DNA of 60,035 bases, the filler included. It is 4 parts of 4 records of this genome, joined end to end, with 100 filler letters (N's around TTAATTAATTAA, not from the genome) between each part and the next. Parts side by side here need not be neighbours in the genome. Positions count along the whole stretch, not along the records: positions 49,846 to 60,035 come from SRR31156797_137; 3 more parts are not named here. One strand, given 5' to 3'. The first letter of the stretch is position 1; each line of letters begins with the position of its first letter. The notes beneath the pieces were generated by a model that was not told the origin of the DNA, ran no database searches, and saw nothing but the letters and a program-made list of their open reading frames with translations. Of the stretch, positions 9,445 through 60,035 are shown piece by piece. A program made the position numbers and the translations under genes.

Positions 9445-9530
9445 TTAAGGGCAGCCCCGCCACCCATCCATGTTGCCAAGCCGCAGGCTTTGCGTCCCAC
9501 TCTTTCGAAAGGTTTGCCTTTTTCACTTAT
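9445..9530 (-). ncRNA. c-di-GMP-I (GEMM) riboswitch
   Basis: The minus strand reads TAAGTGAAAAAGGCAAACCTTTCGAAAGAGTGGGACGCAAAGCCTGCGG...GGTGGCGGGGCTGCCCTTA. This has the GGCAAACC-GAAA loop-GGGACGCAAAGCC signature, P3 GCCTGC/GCGGGGC and P1 TAAG/CTTA. Confidence 0.9.
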
Positions 9531-44220: not shown

Positions 44221-46722
44221 GTGATATATCCAGATAATTTTGAAACAAAACTAAGGTTCGATAAAGTTAGAGAACTGGTTAAAAAACAATGTTTAAGTTC
44301 GCTTGGTCGCGATTTAGTAGATGAAATTCGTTTTTCCAATTCGCACAGAACTGTAAATCGTTTGGTAAACGAAACCAATGAATTTAAAACCATTTGCCAG
44401 GAAGAAGAGAGTTTTCCAATTGGATACTTTATTGATGTAAGAGGAAGTTTGGAAAAAGTTCGTATAGATGGAACTTACCTGGAATTAGAGGAATTGTACA
44501 ATTTAAAGCGTTCTTTGGAGTCGATTTCTGCCATTCTTCGCTTTTTTGAGAAGAAGGATGAGGATGATTATCCATACCTGTTGAAATTAACTGGCAACGT
44601 GAAAATGTATCCATACATTTTCGAAAGAATTAATGGTATTATCACAAAAAACGGTAGGATAAAGGGTAATGCATCACCCGAATTACAGCAAATTAGAAGC
44701 TCTTTGATTCAGAAGCAATCGAACATATCAAAGCGCATGCAATCTATGTTAAAGATGGCACAACGTGAAGGTTGGGTCGATAGAGATGTTGCACTTTCTA
44801 TTCGTGATGGAAGAATTGTAATTCCAATTCCAGCAGGTCATAAGCGTAAGATCAAAGGGATTGTACACGATGAATCTGCAACAGGAAAAACCAGCTATAT
44901 TGAGCCTGCTGAAATTGTTGAAACCAACAATGAAATTCGAGAGTTGGAATATGCTGAACGTCGTGAGATTATTAAAATACTTCAAGAGTTTACGGCTCAA
45001 CTTCGACCATATATCGACGATTTATTTCGGGCTTACGAATTTTTAGCCAATATCGATTTTATCAGAGCAAAGGCAATGTTCTGTATTCAAGTGAATGCTC
45101 TGTTGCCAAAAATGGTAAATACACCAACTCTGTTATGGGAAAAAGCAACGCATCCGCTTTTATATCTGACATTGAAAAACGAAGGAAGAAAAGTGATTCC
45201 TTTAAGTCTTCAAATGGACGATGAGAAGAGAATTATTTTGATTTCAGGTCCAAATGCCGGAGGTAAATCGGTTTGTTTGCAAACTGTGGGATTGTTGCAG
45301 TATATGTTCCAGTGTGGCTTTTTGGTTCCTATGGAAGAGGAATCGAAGATTGGTATTTACGATAAAATTTTCATTGATATTGGTGATGAGCAATCTATTG
45401 AGAACGACTTAAGTACCTACAGTTCTCATTTGATGAACATGAAACATTTCCTTCGTAATTCAGATAAAGATACTTTGGTTCTGATTGATGAGTTTGGAAC
45501 AGGAACAGAACCTGCCTTAGGTGGGGCTATTGCCGAGTCGATATTAGATAAATTGAACCGCAAACAAGTTCGTGGTGTAATTACTACTCACTATTCCGGT
45601 TTAAAGCACTTTGCTTCCGAAGCAGATGGAATTGAGAATGGAGCCATGCTTTACGATTCGCATCAGATGAGACCTTTGTTTCAATTGGAGGTTGGCAAGC
45701 CAGGTTCTTCATTTGCATTCGAAATTGCAAGAAAAATTGGATTACCCGAAGAAATATTAAAAGCGGCAACCGATAAAATTGGTGAAGATCACATCAATTT
45801 TGACAAACACTTGCGTGATATTGTTCGAGATAAGAGATATTGGGAAGGTAAAAGAGATAAAATTCGCAGAAATGAAAAGAAACTGAATCAGCTTGTTGAG
45901 CAATACGATAAAGAGCTAAAAGACGCCAGTAAACTGCGTAAAGATATTATCGAAAAGGCACAGGAAGAGGCGAAACATTTGCTTCAGAATGCCAATAAAA
46001 CGATAGAAAAAACCATTCGTGAGATTAAGGAAAGTAAGGCTGAAAAAGAGAAAACCAGAAAAGTTAGAAAGGAATTTGAGGAGACTAAAGTTGAATTAAC
46101 TCAGGCTGAACTGGAGGAAGAGGAGAGAATCAACCGAAAAATTCAGAAACTTCAAAATCGTGAAAAGAAAAAGAATAGAGGTGCTAAAGAGGAAGTAAAT
46201 CCGGCTAAAGTAAGTAAGCCAGTTGTAAAAGCGAAGAAGCAATTCAATCCGGGTGTTATTGAGAAAGGTGATAATGTAAAACTGGATAATCAGACTTCTG
46301 TTGGAGAAGTGATCGAAATCAATAATAAAAATGCTGTTGTTGCATTTGGAAGTATTCAGACTACGGTTAAAATCCAGCGTCTTACAAAAGTTTCTAAATC
46401 ACAGGTTAAGAAGCAAGAGAAAACTTACAATCAAACATCAGCTTTGGTTCAGGAGAGAATTTCGAAACGAAAATTGAATTTCAGACAAGATCTTGATGTT
46501 AGAGGAATGAGAGGTGATGAGGCTCTGCAAATTGTAATGGATCATGTAGATGAGGCAATAATGCTTGAAGTGAGAGAGTTTAGAATTTTACATGGAACAG
46601 GTCATGGAATACTTCGCCAATTGATACGCGATTACTTGCAAACAGTAGAATTGGTTCGTCATTTTAGAGATGAGAAAATTCAAATGGGAGGATCGGGAAT
46701 AACCGTGGTAACCATGGATTAA
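44221..46722 (+). CDS. mutS2: Endonuclease MutS2
   Basis: ISGPNAGGKS, DIGDEQSIENDLSTYSSH, LIDEFGTGT and Smr domain (LDVRG..ILHGTG). Confidence 0.96.
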   Translation: MIYPDNFETKLRFDKVRELVKKQCLSSLGRDLVDEIRFSNSHRTVNRLVNETNEFKTICQEEESFPIGYFIDVRGSLEKVRIDGTYLELEELYNLKRSLESISAILRFFEKKDEDDYPYLLKLTGNVKMYPYIFERINGIITKNGRIKGNASPELQQIRSSLIQKQSNISKRMQSMLKMAQREGWVDRDVALSIRDGRIVIPIPAGHKRKIKGIVHDESATGKTSYIEPAEIVETNNEIRELEYAERREIIKILQEFTAQLRPYIDDLFRAYEFLANIDFIRAKAMFCIQVNALLPKMVNTPTLLWEKATHPLLYLTLKNEGRKVIPLSLQMDDEKRIILISGPNAGGKSVCLQTVGLLQYMFQCGFLVPMEEESKIGIYDKIFIDIGDEQSIENDLSTYSSHLMNMKHFLRNSDKDTLVLIDEFGTGTEPALGGAIAESILDKLNRKQVRGVITTHYSGLKHFASEADGIENGAMLYDSHQMRPLFQLEVGKPGSSFAFEIARKIGLPEEILKAATDKIGEDHINFDKHLRDIVRDKRYWEGKRDKIRRNEKKLNQLVEQYDKELKDASKLRKDIIEKAQEEAKHLLQNANKTIEKTIREIKESKAEKEKTRKVRKEFEETKVELTQAELEEEERINRKIQKLQNREKKKNRGAKEEVNPAKVSKPVVKAKKQFNPGVIEKGDNVKLDNQTSVGEVIEINNKNAVVAFGSIQTTVKIQRLTKVSKSQVKKQEKTYNQTSALVQERISKRKLNFRQDLDVRGMRGDEALQIVMDHVDEAIMLEVREFRILHGTGHGILRQLIRDYLQTVELVRHFRDEKIQMGGSGITVVTMD

Positions 46723-49745: not shown

Positions 49746-49845
49746 NNNNNNNNNNNNNNNNNNNNNNNNNNNNNNNNNNNNNNNNNNNNTTAATTAATTA
49801 ANNNNNNNNNNNNNNNNNNNNNNNNNNNNNNNNNNNNNNNNNNNN
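49746..49845. other. Artificial contig spacer
   Basis: N-run containing TTAATTAATTAA. Confidence 0.99.
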
Positions 49846-50142
49846 GGCATAAAAATTTTTGTCTGTCATTTTTCCTTTCTGGATTTTATTGAGAAGACTT
49901 TTTTCTGCATCACTTCTATGTTGTTCCTCAATATTTGTAGCAATTACTGCTACTCTTCCCTCATATATTAATTCAGAAGCATATTTTTCACTAATACTTG
50001 AATAAAGATTAAACTGATGATTTTGTTCTGAACCCTCCTCTAGGGCATCCATTAGTTTTTTATCTATTTTAGGGTCCTTATAGCTTTTGCTAAACTTGAT
50101 ATGGTTTTTTGTGTTGTAATATTTATTTTCTGAAGTGGTCAT
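49846..50142 (-). CDS. Hypothetical protein; 3' truncated
   Basis: AAGGA SD before the ATG; frame open to the contig edge. Confidence 0.65.
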
Positions 50143-50411
50143 AATATTCCTTGTTTTTATAATATTTTATGTGTTAAGTATTAACCAAAGCTTAATTAAC
50201 TTTAAATTTTAAAAGAAAATGAAAGTTGATAAAGAAAAGTCTCTATTTTTTCTAAACAGTATTTAAAATGGTAAAAAAGCTACGATTTATCGTGCTTTTG
50301 GAATTGTTTTCGAAGGTGTGTAGGAGTGTTGGGATTATAGTGTTCGCCCCTGCGAACACTAACCTTTAAAAATTAAAAAGAAGTTTAGTGATGTATTTAA
50401 ATATTTCGAGT

Positions 50412-51167
50412 TTATTGATTCTCTTTAATTATTATGTGAACTTCTTCATTGTGTTTCCTTACCTCCTCTCCTAATTTGTCAAAGAAATCTTTAGGGTGTT
50501 TATATAATTCTTGATTATTTGTTAGTATTAACTCTTCAGTTGTAGTAAGGGTTCTAATCATATTTTTTAATTTGCCATCTTCTCCAAATTTTCTTACGAT
50601 AATAAAAGAGCCAAATTGTATAATACTTTCTTCCTCTTTCGTAGATTCTAATAATTGTGAAATTGCAGAAGCTAAATTTACATCTAATTCCACTTGAGAT
50701 TTATTAACTGTTTTATTTTCTATATGTCTCTCTATTTTTTTTACTTTTTCTTTTACTTCTTTATTGGTAACCAAGTTTTTAGTTACTGCCATTATGCGTT
50801 TAAATATGGATCCAATTTTTTCAACATCTAAATCAACATACAAATTTAGTTCATTAAAGATTTTATCAAATGCATATATTATTACCTCTCTGTTGTTTGC
50901 ATTAGAAAAATAGAGTATTACATTAATACCTCTTAAACATTTTTTACTTTTACTTAATGGGTTTGTTTCTATAATTCCATAAAGCATAGCTTCTCTTAAT
51001 GCACTCTCTTCAAGTAACTGATTATATTTAGATACTAAATTATTATATTTCTCTCTAGCTTCAGACCTGTTCAGAGGGTATCTCGAAAATAGGTGAGCTT
51101 TTGATCTCAATCGTGGTCTTCTTCTGGAAGATATACTGTTATAAAAATCGACTTTATTTATTGGCAT
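50412..51167 (-). CDS. Hypothetical protein
   Basis: 251-aa ORF with AAGGA SD. Confidence 0.75.
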   Translation of the reverse strand: MPINKVDFYNSISSRRRPRLRSKAHLFSRYPLNRSEAREKYNNLVSKYNQLLEESALREAMLYGIIETNPLSKSKKCLRGINVILYFSNANNREVIIYAFDKIFNELNLYVDLDVEKIGSIFKRIMAVTKNLVTNKEVKEKVKKIERHIENKTVNKSQVELDVNLASAISQLLESTKEEESIIQFGSFIIVRKFGEDGKLKNMIRTLTTTEELILTNNQELYKHPKDFFDKLGEEVRKHNEEVHIIIKENQ

Positions 51168-51255
51168 AGTACTATCCTTGAGTTTATATAGTATTGTAAT
51201 AAAATATGAATTAATTTTAATAATTATTAAGTTTATGGCATAAAATTAATTTTAA

Positions 51256-51314
51256 AATAATTCTAAATAATTTAGATTATATATATTGACAAATTAATAT
51301 TTTATCTATATACT
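51256..51314 (+). promoter_or_regulatory. Inverted repeat plus sigma70 promoter for the DUF2726/recombinase pair
   Basis: AATAATTCTAA-ATAAT-TTAGATTAT, then TTGACA(51286)-17 nt-TATACT(51309). Confidence 0.7.
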
Positions 51315-51344
51315 TAAGTTAGACTATTATAGGAGAAATTTATA

Positions 51345-52217
51345 GTGAAGAAACAAAATAACTATTCAATTGAAGAACTATATTTATTACTACAAAATAA
51401 ACAATGGAATAAATTACTACAGTTTGAAAAAGAAAATAGAAAACAAATATTAAAAGATGATCAAATAAAAAATATTTATGAAAATTTCTTTTTTCCAGAG
51501 TATATTAAATATATAGAACTATTGGACGACAAACTTAGTTCAATTGTTGAAGCGAAACAGCTATATAAACATTTTATACAACTATATAACACTAGTACAT
51601 ATCATTTTGAAGATAATTTTATAGCATTTACAGTAGTTTTTTTAGATATGTTAAAAGATGATAATTTAGAAATAGCCTATACTTATGCGAAAAAATGGGA
51701 AGAACTTGATGTTGCAAAGCTTATCATCGAAGAGTACTCAAAAAATAAAGTGCTGCACTCACAGAGCGACATTATGCATATCAAAAAAATTGAAGACACT
51801 AAAAAAAATAGATCCACTATAAATCTTTTAAAAAGCAAACAAGAAGTTGACTTTTTTAATGCAGTAAGAAGTTGCTATATGAATTTTTTTATCTATCCCA
51901 ATGTAGCATTAAGCTGTATAATTGATTTTGAAAAGATTGAAGCTGAACTTACTGAGCAAGAAAAAGCATATTTTTTTAAATCAATTGTAGATTGTGTTGT
52001 ATTTAAAGAGGAAAATAATAATTATAAGCCATGCTTCTTTTTTGAACTTGATAGCATCTATCATGATACAGAAAAAATGAAACAAAATGATAATAAAAAA
52101 AATAGAATATTTGAATTGTCAGGACTCAAATTGATAAGAATAAGACCAAAAAGAGAAGAAAAATTGAATGAAGAAAATTTTAAAATTGCTATCAATGAGG
52201 CAATAGGAAATGAATAA
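51345..52217 (+). CDS. DUF2726 domain protein (restriction-endonuclease-like fold)
   Basis: IYPNVAL..II, VDCVVF, FFELDSIYHD and DNKKNRIF..SGLKLIRI motifs; AGGAG SD. Confidence 0.8.
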   Translation: MKKQNNYSIEELYLLLQNKQWNKLLQFEKENRKQILKDDQIKNIYENFFFPEYIKYIELLDDKLSSIVEAKQLYKHFIQLYNTSTYHFEDNFIAFTVVFLDMLKDDNLEIAYTYAKKWEELDVAKLIIEEYSKNKVLHSQSDIMHIKKIEDTKKNRSTINLLKSKQEVDFFNAVRSCYMNFFIYPNVALSCIIDFEKIEAELTEQEKAYFFKSIVDCVVFKEENNNYKPCFFFELDSIYHDTEKMKQNDNKKNRIFELSGLKLIRIRPKREEKLNEENFKIAINEAIGNE

Positions 52218-53310
52218 ACAATTATTAGAGTTTGATAGTTTTGAAAAAGACTATTTAAAATGGGCTAGACTATACTCACTAAATAAATACAATACCTTTG
52301 ATAAAACTAAAGTGAAAGATAGTTTTGATGTAGTTGCACTTGAAGATATGCTATTAAATGAATCAATAGAAAGTATCGAAGAACTACATAAAATAAATAA
52401 CCTGATTAACAGCAGAGGTTTAAAGCAAATGGCTACCTTATCAATGGCTATTAAGAAGTTTTATTATTATGCTAAAGATATAGTAAACTCATTTAATGAG
52501 CTTAATAGTGACTTGATAAAGCAGTATGTAAATAAAGACTGTATAGACCAAAACTTAGTATATAAAACAAGATGTAACTACAAGAATAATTTAGTAGCTT
52601 TTTTGACTTTTGTAAACAATGAAAATAGTGATAAAATCAAATTGGAAATTGAAAAGAAGATTGAAGTTATCTCTAATTCAGATGATAAAAAAAATCCTTA
52701 CAAGCTAATTGATTGGATGGATAGTAAAATGGTAAAACATTTTATTAAGAGTATGGTTTCTTTTGCTTATCCAAATGAGTTTGAAAAATGTAGAGATATA
52801 TTAATTACTAGACTTTTAATTTGTGGTGGATTAGAAGTTACAGAGCTTGTAAATGTAAAAGAAGAAGATTTTACTTTTGAAACAAATTCTATGAGTATCA
52901 ATGTTACTAAAGCAAATGGTAAAACAAGAGAAGTACCTTTGCCTAAAGCTTTATTTATAAGATACTACAATGAATACTTAAAGATAAAAGATAATGAATC
53001 AGATTTGTTTTTTTATAGTCCAAAAGATAAGACTACTCCAATAGAAAAAAACCTAGTAAAAAGTATTGTTGAAAAGCTTGTAGAGTTCTCTAGAATCAAT
53101 GTTAGAGATAAAACACCAAAAATGCTTAGAAAATCTTATATTATATTTATACATAATGAAAAGAATAAAGATGGACTTACACAACCACTTGCAAATGTTC
53201 AAAAATTAAGTGGAATAGAGAATGTATCAGATTTAAAAGAGATATTAAAATATGCAACTGTTGATTTGGTTACAGCTAGTGATGGTTTTGAATCATTAAA
53301 TATAAAATAA
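52210..53310 (+). CDS. XerH-like tyrosine recombinase with degenerate catalytic motifs
   Basis: 366 aa with a XerH-like N-terminus. Box I reads GGLEVTEL; box II reads TPKMLRKSY...VQKLSGI. Confidence 0.75.
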   Translation: MNKQLLEFDSFEKDYLKWARLYSLNKYNTFDKTKVKDSFDVVALEDMLLNESIESIEELHKINNLINSRGLKQMATLSMAIKKFYYYAKDIVNSFNELNSDLIKQYVNKDCIDQNLVYKTRCNYKNNLVAFLTFVNNENSDKIKLEIEKKIEVISNSDDKKNPYKLIDWMDSKMVKHFIKSMVSFAYPNEFEKCRDILITRLLICGGLEVTELVNVKEEDFTFETNSMSINVTKANGKTREVPLPKALFIRYYNEYLKIKDNESDLFFYSPKDKTTPIEKNLVKSIVEKLVEFSRINVRDKTPKMLRKSYIIFIHNEKNKDGLTQPLANVQKLSGIENVSDLKEILKYATVDLVTASDGFESLNIK

Positions 53311-53362
53311 TTCTAATTTATTTAGAATTATTATTGACATTCTCAACAAAAAAGAGTACAAT
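53306..53362 (+). promoter_or_regulatory. Perfect 11-5-11 inverted repeat plus sigma70 promoter facing the ORF array
   Basis: AATAATTCTAA-TTTAT-TTAGAATTATT, then TTGACA(53334)-17 nt-TACAAT(53357). Confidence 0.75.
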
Positions 53363-53414
53363 ACTCTTATAAATAAAAAATAAGCATATTTGATATGCTA
53401 TAAAGGAAAATATA

Positions 53415-53579
53415 GTGATTGAAGCAGCAGAAGAACAAATTTTAGCTAATTTAAATAAATTAGATACAAAAGAGGTTGAAGAGATAGCGGAAAATTATGA
53501 TTATCAATGGGATGAAAATGAATCTACAAGTAGAAATTTAAGAGAACTTGCAGAAGTTATGTTCAATAGAGAATCATAA
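53415..53579 (+). CDS. Small acidic hypothetical protein (54 aa; not in the ORF track)
   Basis: AAGGA SD and GTG start; MIEAAEEQILANLNK...MFNRES*. Confidence 0.65.
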   Translation: MIEAAEEQILANLNKLDTKEVEEIAENYDYQWDENESTSRNLRELAEVMFNRES

Positions 53580-53608
53580 TAAATATACAGTAAAGCAAGG
53601 AGTTCAAT

Positions 53609-54025
53609 ATGATTTTATTAGTTCCAATTAAAAGCGAAAGACTGTCAAGTAGTTGTGTTGTTATAGACTTTGACAACATCGCAAAAGAAGTCACTTTTGA
53701 AGATAAATTTATAGGATTTACAGATAAAAGGTTTACTTTAAAAATTCCAGTTGCTCAATTAAAAAAAGCTATTGAAAACGCAGGATATACAATAGGTATG
53801 CTAAAAAAAGATGTTGAAGTAGTAAAAAGATTCGGAAAATTTTATTACAAGATTGTATTAGACAAAGAAGACAATGTGACTAAGCAAAGAAAAGATTTAA
53901 TGGATAGAAAAAAGAAAAATCTTCTTGCTAAAATTAAAGATAAAGAAGAAGAAATCAAGATTAAAAATGAAGAACTTTTATCAATGAAAGAACTACTAAA
54001 AAAATTAGAAAGAAAATCTGCATAA
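53609..54025 (+). CDS. Hypothetical protein with coiled-coil C-terminus
   Basis: AAGGAG SD. Confidence 0.75.
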   Translation: MILLVPIKSERLSSSCVVIDFDNIAKEVTFEDKFIGFTDKRFTLKIPVAQLKKAIENAGYTIGMLKKDVEVVKRFGKFYYKIVLDKEDNVTKQRKDLMDRKKKNLLAKIKDKEEEIKIKNEELLSMKELLKKLERKSA

Positions 54026-54048
54026 TTATATGCAATAAAGGTTGAGTA

Positions 54049-54354
54049 ATGATTTTTGAGAAAGAAGATATAGTTGAGTTTAATTCACTTTTTGATAAAA
54101 AACTTACTAAAAAAGGTTGTCATACAATAAGTTTCTATGATGGAAAAGATGAAGCACAATTTGAAATAAAAAAAGAGGAAGAAAATGTTTTTTACATTAT
54201 GAGAGCAACAAATAAAAAACATTATGATTGTATCTTTGATTTCAACAAACAATCTATTAAGCAGATTCATACATGGAATTTAGATTTACCAAACAGAATG
54301 ATTAAATCTACTTTCAAAATGGCACTTGATAGATTGAAAAAATTAGAAAATTAA
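54049..54354 (+). CDS. Hypothetical protein
   Basis: AAGG SD within the junction motif. Confidence 0.7.
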   Translation: MIFEKEDIVEFNSLFDKKLTKKGCHTISFYDGKDEAQFEIKKEEENVFYIMRATNKKHYDCIFDFNKQSIKQIHTWNLDLPNRMIKSTFKMALDRLKKLEN

Positions 54355-54582
54355 AGCCAGTCGGATTTTATCAAGTATTTTTCAAAGATGGAAGTTCAAA
54401 TATAGGATGTATAGGAAGATATGATGATAATTATAATGTAAAAGCATCATTATGGATTGCCTTTCCAAATGTATACAATGGGAGTTTTAAAATTACTAAA
54501 AGTTTTGCTAAAACTATAAGCAAAGTAGAAAGAAAATATTAAACCCCAATGAGTAAAATTTAATACAATAAAGGTTCAAAAT

Positions 54583-54753
54583 ATGACAACTATTGAAATT
54601 ACAGAAGAACAACTAGAAGCAATTAAAGACTTAGCTGATGATATACAATCAATGATAGGTGGTGCTGATAATGATGAACACTGGCAAAATTGTATTGATA
54701 AGATAGATGAAGTTTTAGAACAAAATAAATTAACACCAAGAACATTTGGTTAA
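54583..54753 (+). CDS. Small acidic hypothetical protein (56 aa; not in the ORF track)
   Basis: MTTIEITEEQLEAIK...PRTFG*, bounded by junction motifs on both sides. Confidence 0.7.
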   Translation: MTTIEITEEQLEAIKDLADDIQSMIGGADNDEHWQNCIDKIDEVLEQNKLTPRTFG

Positions 54754-54782
54754 TGCAATAAAGTAAGAAGGAAAATTAAAAG

Positions 54783-55133
54783 ATGAAAATTAATACTAAG
54801 AACAAAGAATCAGGATTAAAGGTTTTAGCAATAATTTTATTAATTGTATCAACACCATACTATATGATATTGCTACCAAAAGTATTTTTAGGTTTCGCTG
54901 CTATATATAGTAGTCCTAATGATATGATTGCACATTCATCAATGATGATACTTGGTTTTGTGGCAGCAGTTGGTATGGCTTATAATTCATATAAAATGAT
55001 TGTAGAATGGGATAAAAGTATTCATGTTGTTTTTAAAGAATCTGTTTTTCTTCTTTTTTTAATCTTAGTTTATATAAATACATTGAAAGAACCAACGAGA
55101 GTTATTATTGATTACTTAGAAAGTTTAGTTTAG
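54783..55133 (+). CDS. Membrane protein, hypothetical
   Basis: Three hydrophobic segments; AAGGA SD. Confidence 0.7.
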   Translation: MKINTKNKESGLKVLAIILLIVSTPYYMILLPKVFLGFAAIYSSPNDMIAHSSMMILGFVAAVGMAYNSYKMIVEWDKSIHVVFKESVFLLFLILVYINTLKEPTRVIIDYLESLV

Positions 55134-55150
55134 TAATTGGAAAATATTAA

Positions 55151-55390
55151 ATGATTAATTTTAAAAGCCCACTTACTAAATCAAATTTGTTGATATTGTG
55201 TTTGGTATATATTATTTCAATAGTTTTCTTTTTTACAATAGCTTTTGAACAAAATTTGGAAACCTTTTTTGGTTCTGTTAAAATTGCAACGGTTATTGTA
55301 CTTATTCCTACATTAATAGGTTGGTATCTTTTAAAATGGATATTTGAAGGAATTTATACAATGTTACGAGTAAAAGAAAAAAATAAATAA
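55151..55390 (+). CDS. Small two-TM hypothetical protein
   Basis: Two hydrophobic segments. Confidence 0.65.
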   Translation: MINFKSPLTKSNLLILCLVYIISIVFFFTIAFEQNLETFFGSVKIATVIVLIPTLIGWYLLKWIFEGIYTMLRVKEKNK

Positions 55391-55489
55391 GTATCTAAAA
55401 GGTGCTGTAAGGGATAATATTGCAATGTGTAATACTATTATGTATATTGAATTAAAGTAATAAAATATGATAAAAAAAGGTTGTGAAAA

Positions 55490-56128
55490 ATGGAAACTGC
55501 TACAAAAAAAATAAAAGAAGTTGAAAATGATAATTCAGAGGATAATTCTTTTTTAAAGATCTTTCTAGGATTGATTCTTATAGTAATGTTTTGGGCTTTA
55601 CTAGATAACAAAGAATCTAAAAATAAAGCTCTTGAAGCAGAAGTTAGAAATGTACATTTTGAGTTATATGATTATAAAAAAAATGTAGTATTAAATAATA
55701 AGGCATCAATTACTAAATATATCCAAAGTAACTTTCAAGATATTAATGAATATAGATTAGTTTCAATTGCAAACAATGAAGAATATTCTACATTAACAGT
55801 AATTATTAATGAGCCTATAAAAACGACTAAAAATGAATTAGGATATAGAAAAGATAATTTCTATTTAATTGATGTAAAAATCACTCCTGAAAAGTTGGAA
55901 TTAATTGAGCTTACAAAACAAATACCTTTACAGGTAAACAATAAAAATAAATTGGATAATGAGAAAATTTGGTATCAAAAAATTCACGACTTTTTCCCTA
56001 ATCCCGTAACAGGTTTTATTTTAGGACTTAAGGGATTTGCAAAAAAGGTTAATTCTATGGTTATTGAATCTAAAAGAAGTTCGATTGAAAAGCCAATATA
56101 CTTAGAAAAAATAAATAATCCAAAATGA
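55490..56128 (+). CDS. Membrane-anchored hypothetical protein
   Basis: One N-terminal TM segment; AAGG SD. Confidence 0.7.
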   Translation: METATKKIKEVENDNSEDNSFLKIFLGLILIVMFWALLDNKESKNKALEAEVRNVHFELYDYKKNVVLNNKASITKYIQSNFQDINEYRLVSIANNEEYSTLTVIINEPIKTTKNELGYRKDNFYLIDVKITPEKLELIELTKQIPLQVNNKNKLDNEKIWYQKIHDFFPNPVTGFILGLKGFAKKVNSMVIESKRSSIEKPIYLEKINNPK

Positions 56129-56211
56129 TTAAGTTCAATAGGTCTAACTTTTAATAGTTGGACTGTTTGAGTTTATTAAATTGCACTAAAAAAGTGTTAT
56201 TAAGGAATAAA

Positions 56212-56397
56212 ATGTTTGAAAAAAGAATAGAAGAAATAGAGGGGCTTGGATTAGAATTTATACCTAAATATAATAGCTATTGCTTCAAAGATGTTAATGT
56301 AGGAGTGGTTGAAGTTCAAACAATGAGTGATGAAAAATGGAACAAACTTATTGACGAAATAAAACCAGTTATTGAAGCTAGAAAATCAGCACAATAA
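56212..56397 (+). CDS. Hypothetical protein
   Basis: AAGGA SD then ATG 56212; the stop lies inside a junction motif variant. Confidence 0.7.
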   Translation: MFEKRIEEIEGLGLEFIPKYNSYCFKDVNVGVVEVQTMSDEKWNKLIDEIKPVIEARKSAQ

Positions 56398-56425
56398 ATG
56401 CTATAAAGTTGATTGGGGTAAAGAT

Positions 56426-56764
56426 ATGAATAAAATTATTATAGGTTCAATATTAGCAGCAAGTATTTCTTTTGCTAATAATAATATGGAAGAAGTTGTG
56501 AAGTTTGCTAATGAGATATGTGGTTCTATAAATCTAAATGGTAAAATGGAAAAAATTGATATAGATATACATTTTACAGATAAGAACAAAAAAGAGTTAA
56601 TACAGCTTTTAAAAGATATGGGTTTTGAAGATGTTGAAATTAGGGATAATAGGATAATCAAGAGAAGCTATTCATATAAAGGTATCCCAAGAGAAAAAAT
56701 ATCTCAATCAATGAAAGAGATAAGAAAATGCAAAATGGATATCGTAAAAAGTATGATGCAGTAA
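56426..56764 (+). CDS. Secreted hypothetical protein
   Basis: Signal peptide MNKIIIGSILAASISFA; the stop lies inside the junction motif. Confidence 0.7.
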   Translation: MNKIIIGSILAASISFANNNMEEVVKFANEICGSINLNGKMEKIDIDIHFTDKNKKELIQLLKDMGFEDVEIRDNRIIKRSYSYKGIPREKISQSMKEIRKCKMDIVKSMMQ

Positions 56765-56776
56765 AGAGGTTGTTTT

Positions 56777-57022
56777 ATGAATAAGCAAGAGATTATTGAT
56801 AAAAAGTGTTTTTGTATCTTTTCAAATGAAAATGAATCTAAGTTATTAGAGCTTGGCTTTAAATATTGGATAGGTAGAGGTAATTTAGAGAAAATAAGTT
56901 CTGACAATACTGCACAATTTTTCATATTAGAAGATGATGAAATAAAAACTGGTGTCAATGCAGATATTGTCAATTTTACTGAAATAAAAATAATTGATAA
57001 TAAATTTAATTTAGTACAATAA
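56777..57022 (+). CDS. Hypothetical protein
   Basis: GAGG SD; the stop lies inside the junction motif. Confidence 0.7.
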   Translation: MNKQEIIDKKCFCIFSNENESKLLELGFKYWIGRGNLEKISSDNTAQFFILEDDEIKTGVNADIVNFTEIKIIDNKFNLVQ

Positions 57023-57032
57023 AGGGCTTTTA

Positions 57033-57317
57033 ATGGAAGTGTATTATATTGGCAAAAACAAAAAAGAAACTTCAAAATTTATACATAGTGAGATTGAAAA
57101 GAATGAACTTATCTCTAAGAAAAAAATATTAATAGATGATACAAAACAAGAAATTTATTTAATAGATGGTTACAGTTTAAATAATATATATAAATATCCT
57201 GATGATAGAAAATATTTAGTATTCAAAGATGGTGTTTATGTAAATTCTATATTTCGAGAGTTCTCAAAAAGTTTGTTAAGTCTTATTGAGTCAAAAACTA
57301 TTAAAAACATACAATAA
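57033..57317 (+). CDS. Hypothetical protein
   Basis: Bounded by junction motifs on both sides. Confidence 0.7.
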   Translation: MEVYYIGKNKKETSKFIHSEIEKNELISKKKILIDDTKQEIYLIDGYSLNNIYKYPDDRKYLVFKDGVYVNSIFREFSKSLLSLIESKTIKNIQ

Positions 57318-57325
57318 AGGGTTTA

Positions 57326-57796
57326 GTGATGGATAATTTCTTGAAAACACTAGTTGAATTGGATTTTTTTGAAATGAGTAATGAAGAATTAAATACTTAT
57401 ATAGAAGAGAATAAGGAATCAATCATTGAGGCTTTAACAGTAGATGGTGAACAGTTAGGTGAAGCTATTTTTAAAGATATGAATGAAACTGGTTTTAGAT
57501 ATTTTTTAGATGAATTAAAATTGCGTGGTGATCGTAAATCATCACAAACTCTTTTATTTGAAATTGAAAACTACAATAAAGAAGCTGTAATATGTGCAGG
57601 TATTGGGGTAGATTACAACAGATATATTTTAATTAAAGATTACTTCGTTGAAGAGCTTAAAAAAGTTGATAAACTGGATGAGATTGAGGAGCAACTTATT
57701 CAAACTTGTTGTATAAGTTTTGCAAGAAAAAACAATAATTCTTATAAAGAAGGGATTGAATTTATAATCAATGGGTCACTAAAGAGTAAAGATTAA
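57326..57796 (+). CDS. Acidic hypothetical protein
   Basis: 156-aa ORF following a junction motif. Confidence 0.72.
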   Translation: MMDNFLKTLVELDFFEMSNEELNTYIEENKESIIEALTVDGEQLGEAIFKDMNETGFRYFLDELKLRGDRKSSQTLLFEIENYNKEAVICAGIGVDYNRYILIKDYFVEELKKVDKLDEIEEQLIQTCCISFARKNNNSYKEGIEFIINGSLKSKD

Positions 57797-57891
57797 CTGT
57801 TATGTTTAAAAAAGCACAATAAATGATGAATGATAATCTCTCTAAAAGAGGGATTTCATCTCACTGGAGTAATGAATTAAGGAGTTAGTTA

Positions 57892-58038
57892 ATGTTTAGA
57901 ATAATAATAAAAATCATAAATAATTGGAAAGAGAAAAGAAGAGTCCAAAAAGAAAAAGATAGACTAATTGCCTCACTTGATGAAAGAGGATTATATGAAC
58001 AATCAGCACTTATTGAAGCATTAAGTAGTAAAAAATAA
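57892..58038 (+). CDS. Small hypothetical protein (48 aa; not in the ORF track)
   Basis: AAGGAG SD; MFRIIIKIINNWKEKRR...LSSKK*. Confidence 0.6.
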   Translation: MFRIIIKIINNWKEKRRVQKEKDRLIASLDERGLYEQSALIEALSSKK

Positions 58039-58111
58039 GTATAAGTAGCATCAAAACTTTTTTAAAAAGTTTCTTGATCTGATTAATGTAGAAAAGTTAA
58101 AAAGGATTGGA

Positions 58112-58570
58112 ATGAAGTATATTGAAATAAAAAATAATGGTGAGCATGGTTGGAATTTGGATGCAATTCTAGCTAACTTGGGATATTGTCTATCAAGCAC
58201 TACAGATGATGATTTTTACAAAAAACTTGAAAGAATAGGAAAAAACTTAGCAGTTATAATATTAAATAAATATTCAAAAGATGAACTAATAGAAATGTTC
58301 AAATCTAGCATATCAAATTCACAATACCAAAATTGTTCTTGCGTAAAAAATGAATACAACATAAATAGTTGTCATATTGATTATCTAAGCAGTATGATAA
58401 GTTCTTTATCAGAGTATTCAAATAGAGAAAAAGGTTTATTTAGTAAATATTTTGATAAAAACAACATTATTGATTTCTTTACATTATATTTCACAATTAT
58501 GAAAAATAATAATGAGTTTAAATTTTTACTTGAAGAACCAAGTAGAAATATGCCAAAAGCACATGACTAG
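58112..58570 (+). CDS. Hypothetical protein
   Basis: AAGGA SD. Confidence 0.7.
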   Translation: MKYIEIKNNGEHGWNLDAILANLGYCLSSTTDDDFYKKLERIGKNLAVIILNKYSKDELIEMFKSSISNSQYQNCSCVKNEYNINSCHIDYLSSMISSLSEYSNREKGLFSKYFDKNNIIDFFTLYFTIMKNNNEFKFLLEEPSRNMPKAHD

Positions 58571-58588
58571 TGTAGTAAAGGATAAAGA

Positions 58589-58927
58589 TTGAAAAAGTTA
58601 CTAATATGTTTAATGGTTTTAGGAAGTTCTCTTTTTGGGGAGGAAGTTGTAGAAGTTATTATTCCTTTAGAAGCACATAATTTAAATGTAGGAAGTAAAT
58701 CTACTTTTAAATTGGACAATAAAATAGTTAAATATCAAGTGCTTTCTAAGAACAATACGGAAGTTTGTGTAAAGTCATTAACAAAAGATGTCGAGTTTAT
58801 GAATCAATGTAGAGCTATTTTTAAAAACTCATTAATAAAAGAAGTTGAGTTGAGACTAGAGAATGAAAATTTTAGAGAAGAACTACAAATACTTATTAAC
58901 AAGTATCCTGATATGGATATACGATAA
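58589..58927 (+). CDS. Secreted hypothetical protein
   Basis: Signal peptide MKKLLICLMVLGSSLFG; the stop lies inside a motif variant. Confidence 0.7.
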   Translation: MKKLLICLMVLGSSLFGEEVVEVIIPLEAHNLNVGSKSTFKLDNKIVKYQVLSKNNTEVCVKSLTKDVEFMNQCRAIFKNSLIKEVELRLENENFREELQILINKYPDMDIR

Positions 58928-58937
58928 AGGTTATAAA

Positions 58938-59222
58938 ATGGAAAAACAATTTATAAAAAGTAGTATTGAAAATGAATCTATTGTAAGAATTTTCCAAAAA
59001 AATTACAATAATACGATAAGTCATATCGGTAGTCTTGTTAAAGAGGCAAAAATAGATTTTCCAGACTTAAAAGATAGAGACATAAGAGTCGTTGTTTTGA
59101 GTGGAGAAAGATATGACAGAATGACTGCGATTGAATTTTCTTCACCAAAAAATGAAGTTCCTGAAACTTATTTTGAGTGGACTAGAACAGATGAGCTAGG
59201 ATTCTGTAAAACTTATAATTAA
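58938..59222 (+). CDS. Hypothetical protein
   Basis: AAGG SD then ATG 58938. Confidence 0.7.
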   Translation: MEKQFIKSSIENESIVRIFQKNYNNTISHIGSLVKEAKIDFPDLKDRDIRVVVLSGERYDRMTAIEFSSPKNEVPETYFEWTRTDELGFCKTYN

Positions 59223-59242
59223 ACATGCAATAAAGGAAATAA

Positions 59243-59539
59243 ATGATTACAATATTTGACTTAGGTGGCAATAAAAAAGAATTAGAAACAGAAGAGTTTT
59301 TAGATTTGAACGATGAGTGTCATTCACGTTCTGAGATTACTTTCTTAAAATTTGACCCAGACAATTTAAATGCAGAATTTGATGAATTATTCAGATGTTA
59401 TAACAATAACGGATGTACAGAGTTAAATACTGATGATCAAAATTTTGATGAAGATAGAAGTTTTTTATGTTGCAATAAAGATATTAATTTTAAAGAACTT
59501 GAAATTAATACAGATAATAGTTTTTCTATGGATTTATAG
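59243..59539 (+). CDS. Acidic hypothetical protein
   Basis: AAGGA SD within the junction motif. Confidence 0.7.
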   Translation: MITIFDLGGNKKELETEEFLDLNDECHSRSEITFLKFDPDNLNAEFDELFRCYNNNGCTELNTDDQNFDEDRSFLCCNKDINFKELEINTDNSFSMDL

Positions 59540-59595
59540 AAACAACACATAATTAACAAATAATATTAATAAGAAAAAGACTAATAAGGAAAAAA

Positions 59596-59721
59596 ATGTT
59601 TTTAACTAGACTAAAAGAACAATTAACTAATTTGACTCCAATACAATGGTTATTTGGATTAGGTTTATTTTATGTAATAGGCTTAATAAATGGATTTCTA
59701 TTCTTAAAATACTTAATTTAG
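59596..59721 (+). CDS. 41-aa single-TM peptide (not in the ORF track)
   Basis: AAGGA SD; MFLTRLKEQLTNLTPIQWLFGLGLFYVIGLINGFLFLKYLI*. Confidence 0.6.
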   Translation: MFLTRLKEQLTNLTPIQWLFGLGLFYVIGLINGFLFLKYLI

Positions 59722-59735
59722 AACAAGGATAAATA

Positions 59736-60011
59736 ATGAAAAGATTACTGTTAGGATTGATATTATCTGTAACTATGTCACCTGCAATTTCAGTTGTTGA
59801 ATTATCAGAATTAGAATATAAGAGAGGTGATGTTATTACAGTAAAGCTTGGTTTAATAAACTCAAATGGATATCCTGTTTGCATTGGAAGAACACTATTT
59901 TTCAATTATCCAAAAGTATCTTATCAATTATTTGATCATAAGAATAAAAGACCTTATAAATGTAGAGCTGAACAAAACAGAGAAAAAGAATATAAGATAA
60001 TAATTGAGTAA
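59736..60011 (+). CDS. Secreted hypothetical protein
   Basis: AAGGA SD; signal peptide. Confidence 0.68.
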   Translation: MKRLLLGLILSVTMSPAISVVELSELEYKRGDVITVKLGLINSNGYPVCIGRTLFFNYPKVSYQLFDHKNKRPYKCRAEQNREKEYKIIIE

Positions 60012-60035
60012 GATAAAATCTAAAATTTAAGTGAA

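Follow-up and report, generated by a model that had tools for sequence, protein, structure and literature searches.

The window analysed here is a stretch of DNA of 60,035 nt. On its plus strand, at 52210..53310, it carries a gene for a XerH-like pseudo-recombinase of 366 aa, for which we coin the name XerL. The genuine context of this gene within the window is 49846-60035 only. The reading frame passes through all 366 codons without a stop, in agreement with the first-pass annotation of this DNA, which had described it as uninterrupted and of full length. The gene is bracketed by two modules, P1 and P2, each composed of a palindrome and a promoter-like site, and is followed by a co-oriented array of small open reading frames (ORFs).

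XerL consists of two domains. Residues 9-139 (52234..52626, plus strand) match the XerH-type core-binding (CB) domain PF18644 (Phage_int_SAM_6) with E 3.6e-07 over profile positions 4-132 of 132; the score is 30.7 bits, the curated cut-off 27.5. Residues 184-311 (52759..53142, plus strand) form a tyrosine-recombinase-fold domain with a degenerate active site (PF00589, E 8.9e-10). Its score of 39 bits, with a cut-off of 27.1, completes the CB plus catalytic (CAT) architecture of the superfamily fold.

XerH is the single-subunit dif resolvase of Campylobacterota. The best solved relative of XerL is XerH from Helicobacter pylori, as revealed by phmmer (E 1.3e-08) and by a profile of the XerL family searched against the PDB (E 1.7e-27). 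The NCBIfam models for Xer and IntI proteins all scored far below their cut-offs, the best of them being XerA with 59 bits versus 220. The structure was predicted with AlphaFold2, giving a mean predicted local distance difference test (pLDDT) value of 73 and lower confidence over the last 70 residues. With this model as Foldseek query, the first six matches were XerH chains (E 3e-15 to 6e-14, approximately 355 aligned columns), and the top 49 among the matches listed are all tyrosine recombinases. Thus XerH is the closest relative of XerL in sequence and structure, including the XerH-type N-terminal domain, and the XerH-like identity proposed at first pass is borne out by Pfam, phmmer, family profile and fold comparison alike. 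The two proteins share the two-domain architecture with PF18644 and are similar in length, 366 aa for XerL and 362 aa for XerH (PDB 5JJV, 5JK0; Helicobacter, Campylobacter and Arcobacter).

Tyrosine recombinases require the catalytic set R-K-H-R-H/W-Y, which is incomplete in XerL (E209, K238, K304, R307, I336 and, doubtfully, Y348). At the Arg-I position, GGLEVTEL of XerL stands opposite TGMRSNEA or TGIRVSEI of XerH, which places Glu209 (52834-52836) where the arginine is expected. PKMLRKS replaces AHMLRHS, with Lys304 at the His-II position and Arg-II retained as Arg307. LSGIEN stands opposite LGHADI, so that His/Trp-III is Ile336, and the beta-hairpin lysine is kept as Lys238 (NGKTRE). The same positions were paired by phmmer with XerH (5jjv) and by hhalign when the family profile was aligned with 14 canonical XerH sequences (probability 99.9, E 1e-31); neither restores the full catalytic set. 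The substitutions read by eye at first pass (R to E in box I, KMLRK for HxLRH, SGI for LGH) are therefore correct. The accompanying statement that most catalytic residues are replaced holds for three of the six positions, two others being retained and the identity of the nucleophile uncertain.

The tyrosine closest to the expected place is Tyr348 (53251-53253), 12 residues past Ile336 as had been noted, and thus shifted by three residues (53215..53253, plus strand, SGIENVSDLKEILKY). It is not a conserved nucleophile, being replaced by L, F, F and T in four of 16 related clusters. Since the profile alignment ends at XerL residue 340 (profile column 346), the C-terminal segment bearing this tyrosine is not demonstrably homologous to the helix of the catalytic tyrosine. 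For XerH, the published account gives R213, K239, H309, R312, H335 and Y344 as the active site and describes R213K as the catalytically dead control (Bebel et al., PMC5241119). If exchange for lysine is sufficient to inactivate XerH there, Glu or Leu at Arg-I should abolish canonical chemistry.

Other parts of the protein have been retained. In the N-terminal domain, TRxNYKNNL of XerL stands opposite TKKNYRIAL of XerH. The NY[KR] element and the arginine following the beta-hairpin lysine are invariant between the XerL family and canonical XerH; together with the CB domain, these residues make up the putative DNA-binding parts still present in XerL. Two conserved features are specific to the family, an insertion with the sequence NEKxxxGLTQP and a C-terminal TASxxF motif.

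A word-indexed search identified 10 relatives of XerL with 38-95% identity, one of them labelled 'site-specific integrase [Aliarcobacter butzleri]'. An exhaustive profile search returned 1586 proteins at E <= 0.001 and 35 at E <= 1e-30. For phylogenetic analysis, the 10 relatives were combined with the 149 new proteins among the best 150 of the 1586. From these 159 proteins we retained 109 with a length of 320-420 aa, dropped 50, and added XerL and a canonical Aliarcobacter XerH to give 111 rows. The rows are cluster representatives at 50% identity, and all tree supports are FastTree values. An arginine is missing from the Arg-I column in 56 of the 111 rows, and the distribution of this state on the tree needs seven changes compared with a mean of 37 for shuffled labels. 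A clade of 45 rows lacks Arg-I throughout (Shimodaira–Hasegawa-like support 94) and, judged from the tree, appears to be ancient. XerL falls within it, in a subclade of 16 rows (support 97).

In this subclade the canonical residue is found in none of the 16 rows at Arg-I (E in 10, L in six), at His-II (K, Q, R, S or L) or at His-III (I, L, M or V). Arg-II is arginine in all 16. The beta-hairpin position is lysine in nine, arginine in four and another residue in three, and the candidate tyrosine is present in 12. In the wider clade lacking Arg-I, the majority have no tyrosine at all in the aligned C-terminal region. The substitutions were also compared across 13 aligned loci and proteins. Codon comparison of 13 genes gave low ratios of non-synonymous to synonymous substitution (dN/dS) for the unsaturated pairs (dS < 0.8). 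These were 0.083 for loci L007 and L008 (dS 0.30), 0.11-0.13 for either of them with L001, 0.137 for L003 and L004 (dS 0.27) and 0.195 for the window and L002 (dS 0.77). These values indicate that the substitutions are fixed and that XerL is under purifying selection.

It could be argued that xerL is a decaying xerH pseudogene, open by chance, given that three of its catalytic residues have been replaced. This is virtually ruled out: the frame is open in all 15 XerL loci with dN/dS between 0.08 and 0.20, identical positions are altered in proteins 37-95% identical to XerL of the window, and the clade of 45 clusters without Arg-I is evidently old. Collection of homologues thus revealed no random decay; all 16 clusters are non-canonical at the same positions. 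XerL unites the recombinase fold with catalytic loss and purifying selection and belongs to the inactivated recombinase folds. The earlier proposal of an exapted, catalytically dead XerH is supported by this pattern of substitutions.

Repeat, pattern and promoter scans revealed the P1 and P2 modules. P1 (51256..51314, plus strand) consists of the palindrome AATAATTCTAA-ATAAT-TTAGATTAT followed by TTGACA-17-TATACT. The palindrome is slightly imperfect and extends over 51256-51279 (pattern match 51259-51279); the promoter-like site at 51286-51314 agrees with the consensus in 11 of 12 positions. P2 (53306..53362, plus strand) consists of AATAATTCTAA-TTTAT-TTAGAATTATT followed by TTGACA-17-TACAAT. 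Its palindrome, at 53306-53332, is perfect (0 mismatches) and begins within the stop codon of xerL; the promoter-like site, again 11 of 12, starts one base past it at 53334-53362. These are the two top promoter-like sites of the 10-kb contig, and a palindrome lies directly before each.

The palindromes have an 11-5-11 architecture with the core AATT[C/G]TAA-N5-TTA[G/C]AATT. A site of this size fits a dimer of a XerH-like clamp, as XerH covers 10-11 bp per arm (PMC5241119). The P2 module follows the xerL stop codon in 14 of 15 loci, whose proteins are 37-95% identical to XerL of the window. P1 is visible in nine (the window, L001, L002, L003, L004, L008, L010, L011 and L016). It was not found in L006, L012 and L015, and some contigs end short of its position. 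The half-site varies with the protein clade, being TTCTAA in the clade of the window and TTGTAA or TTATAA in the distant clade; the full half-sites are AATTCTAA...TTAGAATT and AATTGTAA...TTA(C/T)AA(A)TT, respectively. On inspection of the sequences by eye, 12-17 nt were counted throughout from the palindrome centre to the start of the -35 box downstream, and the right arm touches or overlaps this box.

We tentatively favour the explanation that XerL is an exapted, inert, site-specific DNA-binding (auto)regulator. It would have kept the two-domain C-clamp of a tyrosine recombinase and lost phosphoryl transfer. As a dimer, it would bind the 11-5-11 palindromes immediately upstream of the -35 boxes of P1 and P2 and thereby alter transcription. 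P1 would drive the variable upstream gene, often a defence gene, together with xerL, and P2 the downstream array, so that XerL would both autoregulate and control whether the array is expressed. Repression has a slight edge over activation, given that the right palindrome arm reaches or overlaps the -35 box. We infer DNA binding from the conservation of the palindromes at P1 and P2, from the strict co-location of xerL with the paired modules and from the half-site that changes with the protein clade. The first-pass suggestion of a DNA-binding regulator thereby gains circumstantial support, with binding itself still putative. An inert, sequence-specific DNA clamp is the most economical reading of the protein.

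Several observations weigh against this explanation. The palindromes consist of A and T only and lie in DNA of 25% GC; allowing up to three mismatches, the core pattern occurs four times in the whole window with 2.6 expected, and is thus not rarer than chance. The palindrome argument therefore rests on position and on conservation across loci, and not on the statistics of a single window. At locus L015 both the P2 palindrome and the promoter are absent. The AlphaFold2 model is moderate overall and weak at residues 297-306 and 348-361. Finally, a pure regulator leaves unexplained why xerL is tied to an array which recombines at a fixed motif, and also the NEKxxxGLTQP insertion and the TASxxF motif.

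The re-use of a dead tyrosine recombinase as a DNA-binding protein is already known from two systems, both reported in 2023 (PMC10516654, PMC10293859), so that this kind of re-use has been recognized only recently. As described in PMC10516654, MrpR (YopR) of the Bacillus subtilis phage SPbeta (PDB 8A0A) has the tyrosine-recombinase fold, keeps three of seven catalytic residues, shows no recombination and acts as a master repressor binding a repeated element. On this description it is the closest functional analogue of XerL as an inert regulator, combining the fold and catalytic loss with sequence-specific binding and repression of promoters. MrpR was absent from the XerL family profile search at E <= 1 and from the Foldseek matches listed; with no detectable sequence relationship to MrpR, XerL represents an independent exaptation, from the XerH lineage. 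The second example is TnsF of Tn6022-like Tn7 transposons, described in PMC10293859 as an inactivated XerH-like target selector that recognizes specific DNA sites and bends them. TnsF, as described there, has N-terminal zinc fingers, tandem CB domains and TnsABC partners, none of which are found at XerL loci.

The MrpR precedent (PMC10516654) raises the question whether XerL could be a prophage or phage-satellite master repressor, with the small downstream genes as its early genes. These are orphan genes in one direction behind a strong promoter, and the PHROG matches of known function were integrase families only. MrpR is a Firmicutes prophage protein with about nine binding sites. XerL is encoded in a non-phage context, where two putative sites flank the gene and a cassette array follows it. 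No member of the XerL family was detected in 50,697 phage records, and none was found among the viral contigs of IMG/VR. The 41 kb around the copy on the megaplasmid pM830MA contain no structural or replication genes, and its neighbours there are the anti-phage system CBASS, RnlAB, the insertion sequence IS21 and other integrases. The arrays can be as short as one to three genes, and motif-bounded cassette exchange is atypical of phage early regions. Genomic contexts and absence from the phage collections thus make a phage or satellite origin very improbable.

The array begins behind P2. A hairpin in the 5' untranslated region (AGCATAT-TTG-ATATGCT) together with the first junction motif, GCTATAAAGG, occupies 53383..53406 (plus strand) and forms the right-hand boundary of the conserved platform; a comparable hairpin and motif are present in L003, L004, L006-L009, L011 and L012. 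In the array itself (53415..60035, plus strand), which runs off the window, T(G/A)CA(A/G)TAAAG(G) links no fewer than 17 small ORFs. Within it the motif is matched 12 times on the plus strand and never on the minus strand; the remaining 53 kb of the window have five matches on the plus and three on the minus strand. A logo of 38 distinct junctions shows no conservation past approximately 12 nt. The motif was considered as a general ribosome-binding context of Aliarcobacter, and this was rejected, as the 2.5-Mb genome G001 contains 38 matches compared with 36 for the reversed control. Genome G118 has a scattered excess of the motif (65 versus 16 in the control). The cassette ORFs are orphans: one of 27 tested had a Pfam match above cut-off. 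Hairpins upstream of the junctions are modestly enriched (mean -2.1 versus -1.1 kcal/mol, p 0.002); roughly every second junction lacks one. A search against Rfam gave no match at gathering threshold for the array in the window, and nothing at E <= 1 in six related loci.

Two side observations concern the extent and content of the array. A 51-nt sequence of the window (56126-56176) recurs 6369 letters past the window end on a 45-kb contig of run X1, which indicates that the array or related repeats continue well beyond 60035. No ORF reaching 45 aa lies in a 228-nt gap of the array (54355-54582), which ends in ACAATAAAGG and could represent either a small RNA or a cassette in decay.

Comparison of loci revealed exchange of cassettes exactly at the T(G/A)CA(A/G)TAAAG motif. 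L008 and L009 do not differ up to and including TATGCAATAAAGG, and the sequences that follow it are unrelated. L005 and L011, whose XerL proteins are 42% identical, have their first cassette in common, with 94.7% identity over 189 nt, ending at CTGCAATAAA. In L006 there is a tandem duplication of 1150 nt with units starting right after ...TAAAG. Record 11 of run X2, a contig of 996 nt from an independent aquaculture metagenome, continues from 53376-54034 directly to 58924-59260, and the joint lies in the 9-nt sequence ATAAAGGTT common to the two junctions. Record 15 of run X3, from a marine metagenome, matches only 52210-53406 (70 differences) and has other DNA on both sides, from which it follows that the conserved platform is exactly xerL, P2 and the first junction. 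A joint in X2 is also listed at 53405, its intervening sequence not being given; joints of this kind, and those with short sides of 21-30 nt, were set aside as evidence.

These data bear on a second explanation, the main rival, in which XerL serves as the non-catalytic platform of an integron-like cassette system not described before and recombination is performed in trans by host XerH or another enzyme, for which XerL would recruit or shape the DNA. The palindrome, P2, hairpin and first junction would then mark the point of insertion and act as attI, with exchange at the T(G/A)CA(A/G)TAAAG motif. In its favour are the conserved unit seen in the X3 contig, the divergence of L008 and L009 right after TATGCAATAAAGG, the cassette common to two arrays with rather different XerL proteins, the L006 duplication and the joining of 54034 to 58924 across ATAAAGGTT in the X2 contig. 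Further support comes from a motif that is array-specific compared with the control level found in the genome, from the orphan nature of the cassette ORFs, as in chromosomal integrons, and from the presence of canonical XerH in the same genome (G001) as a member of the XerL family. Yet no active recombinase is conserved in cis, and the junction motif has no likeness to the XerL palindrome or to difH of A. butzleri (PMC2731167). With about 11 nt and no palindromic symmetry, it is unlike the core sites of tyrosine recombinases, and the enrichment of hairpins upstream of it is modest. Deletions and duplications could also result from replication slippage between repeats of 9-11 nt, and the conservation of the motif may be partly translational since it holds a stop codon and a Shine-Dalgarno sequence. 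We consider this second explanation rather unlikely.

Several features are shared with integrons. A gene with recombinase fold lies beside a strong outward promoter; behind it come a fixed first junction and an array of variable content, made up of small genes that lack promoters and are mostly orphans. Different arrays have cassettes in common, and these are gained or lost at a conserved junction. In contrast to the integron platform, XerL is not an IntI protein and lacks the catalytic set. It reached 20.7 bits with the integron-integrase model TIGR02249, which includes the additional IntI domain, compared with a cut-off of 265, and over residues 72-250 only. This agrees with the first-pass statement that the degenerate active site weakens a simple integron reading. 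Moreover, xerL is co-oriented with the array, unlike the arrangement in an integron. An attC site is an imperfect palindrome with R''/L''/L'/R' boxes at the cassette end and is 57-141 nt long. The junctions behind xerL carry a motif of 11 nt, accompanied at most by a short upstream hairpin of weak enrichment, and appear to differ from attC.

It is also conceivable that XerL shuffles the cassettes itself by non-canonical chemistry, using the conserved Arg307, Lys308 and Lys238, the NEK...GLTQP loop and a nucleophile other than the classical tyrosine. It is the sole protein conserved beside arrays that clearly recombine, Arg-II is invariant, 13 of the 16 clusters have lysine or arginine in place of the beta-hairpin lysine, and the family-specific motifs are strongly conserved. 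We know of no tyrosine recombinase which functions without Arg-I, and in XerL and its closest relatives this residue is absent from 16 of 16 clusters, an acidic or aliphatic residue standing in its place. The sole nearby tyrosine is lost in four of the 16 and mostly absent in the wider clade. Even the exchange R213K kills XerH (PMC5241119). An enzyme of this kind is very improbable.

XerL is not the dif resolvase of its hosts. Genome G001 encodes, in addition to a member of the XerL family, a canonical XerH in which the RKHRHY set is complete (YTGIRVSE, GKGNKPR, AHMLRHS, LGH, RIYTH), so that XerL is an extra paralogue. Moreover, XerH is a core protein, present as one copy per genome and acting at difH, and the XerL gene is a rare accessory gene. 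Carriers amount to two of 184 Arcobacteraceae species genomes (E <= 1e-40) and to one of 72,556 plasmid records. With a profile specific for the C-terminal part of the family, one of 401 sampled Campylobacterota genomes was positive, namely the seed genome itself. Named carriers are A. butzleri, an Aliarcobacter metagenome-assembled genome and the 160.9-kb A. cryaerophilus megaplasmid pM830MA. All relatives for which DNA is available lie on contigs of 22-26% GC.

A palindrome adjoining the gene is a feature that XerL has in common with XerH: in A. butzleri, difH is located 66 bp from xerH and reads TTGAAAA-CTATAA-TTTTCAA with a 6-bp centre (PMC2731167, Table 2). The XerL palindrome differs from it by a 5-bp spacer, by its sequence and by its presence in two copies at promoters. 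The proteins themselves differ in Arg-I, His-II, His-III, the non-conserved tyrosine and the added NEKxxxGLTQP insertion.

A gene of 290 aa (51345..52217, plus strand), whose product is a nuclease-related DUF2726 protein (PF10881, E 3.4e-08), fills the slot that separates P1 from xerL in the window. The gene appears to be co-transcribed with xerL, its stop codon overlapping the xerL start by 8 nt, and the same arrangement is found on a contig of run X2 covering 51213-53006. At other loci the content of the slot is variable. L003 has at 188-1078 a single-gene anti-phage system similar to PD-T4-7 (PADLOC, E 2.4e-31), L002 at 93-923 a gene judged homologous to it by eye, and L004 a different gene of 300 aa. 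When the DUF2726 protein and nine further neighbours from the window were used as tblastn queries, L001-L012 gave no match to any of them. A fixed pair of DUF2726 nuclease and XerL was therefore dropped as a candidate. PADLOC returned no match for either XerL or the DUF2726 protein.

In L001, L008-L012 and L016, the slot is occupied instead by a non-coding leader, approximately 230 nt long and structured. A long-range stem encloses two hairpins, with five compensatory pairs among four sequences (L008 3155-3385, L001 6520-6750, L012 1085-1340 and L016 19750-19985). The leader has no match in Rfam and may, judging from the predicted pairing, be a riboswitch-like or regulatory RNA.

The neighbours of xerL at other loci have the flavour of a defence island (CBASS, RnlAB, TIR and Fic genes). 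On pM830MA (L001 and L016; record 104178-111521), a CBASS operon with a patatin phospholipase and a SMODS/DncV-like nucleotidyltransferase is located upstream of xerL, as is an RnlA/RnlB toxin–antitoxin pair, and downstream lies an inserted block that holds another three integrase genes. The most divergent member of the family is encoded by L015 (G118:C139, 972-2054, minus strand) and has Phe at the tyrosine position. Its gene is preceded by TACAATAAAAGG, as if xerL itself were a cassette within an array.

A full-text literature search revealed nothing on the XerL family or on Aliarcobacter cassette arrays, subscription journals and supplements being largely outside its scope. What appears to be new is the XerH origin, the clade of 45 clusters, the paired operator–promoter architecture and the tie to a motif-bounded cassette array. 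Among the members of this clade that were looked up (clusters at 50% identity), almost none has an informative name; annotation pipelines label such genes 'site-specific integrase', which is probably wrong for the XerL clade. The MrpR authors suggest (PMC10516654) that recruitment of this kind is commoner than had been expected, and a sizeable unstudied clade derived from XerH bears out their guess. The locus also supplies cis elements that are clear and can be tested, namely a palindrome at each of two promoters.

The XerL gene is the sole conserved gene heading an array whose cassettes swap at a fixed 11-nt junction in defence-island surroundings. The locus therefore offers an entry point to what may be a novel means by which accessory genes are stored and expressed without a classical integron. 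The role of XerL as an inert regulator is compatible with a role in such a platform. That XerL is the signature protein of a new Aliarcobacter gene-cassette platform, analogous to the integron, is possible, though on balance doubtful. If so, a module of xerL, palindrome, promoter, hairpin and first junction would capture and express promoter-less orphan cassettes. Exchange would proceed either by division of labour, with XerL targeting and another enzyme cutting, or by chemistry new to the superfamily, and the XerH clade of 45 clusters without Arg-I would mark a whole hidden class of platforms.

An integrase of the megaplasmid pACRY43158, a 402-aa coding sequence found via the distant family member P0025, has the full catalytic set and was placed outside the XerL clade. 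The Aliarcobacter megaplasmids pACRY43158 and pAFAEC each encode a XerH-like integrase of 402 aa (L018 5929-7137 and L019 5929-7137). These proteins may be plasmid-borne dimer resolvases.

The left end of the xerL contig is set by a linker, N...TTAATTAATTAA...N, at 49746..49845, which joins two contigs, stops translation in all six frames and is not biological. The GC content is 32-38% just to the left of it versus 23-27% to the right, and the left contig (1-49745) encodes a MutS2 (44221-46722) that has just 26% identity with its Aliarcobacter counterpart. As judged from composition and this comparison, the parts on either side probably derive from different organisms or replicons. The unrelated left-hand contig carries a cyclic di-GMP-I riboswitch aptamer at 9447-9528 on the minus strand (RF01051, 55.2 bits compared with a gathering score of 35).

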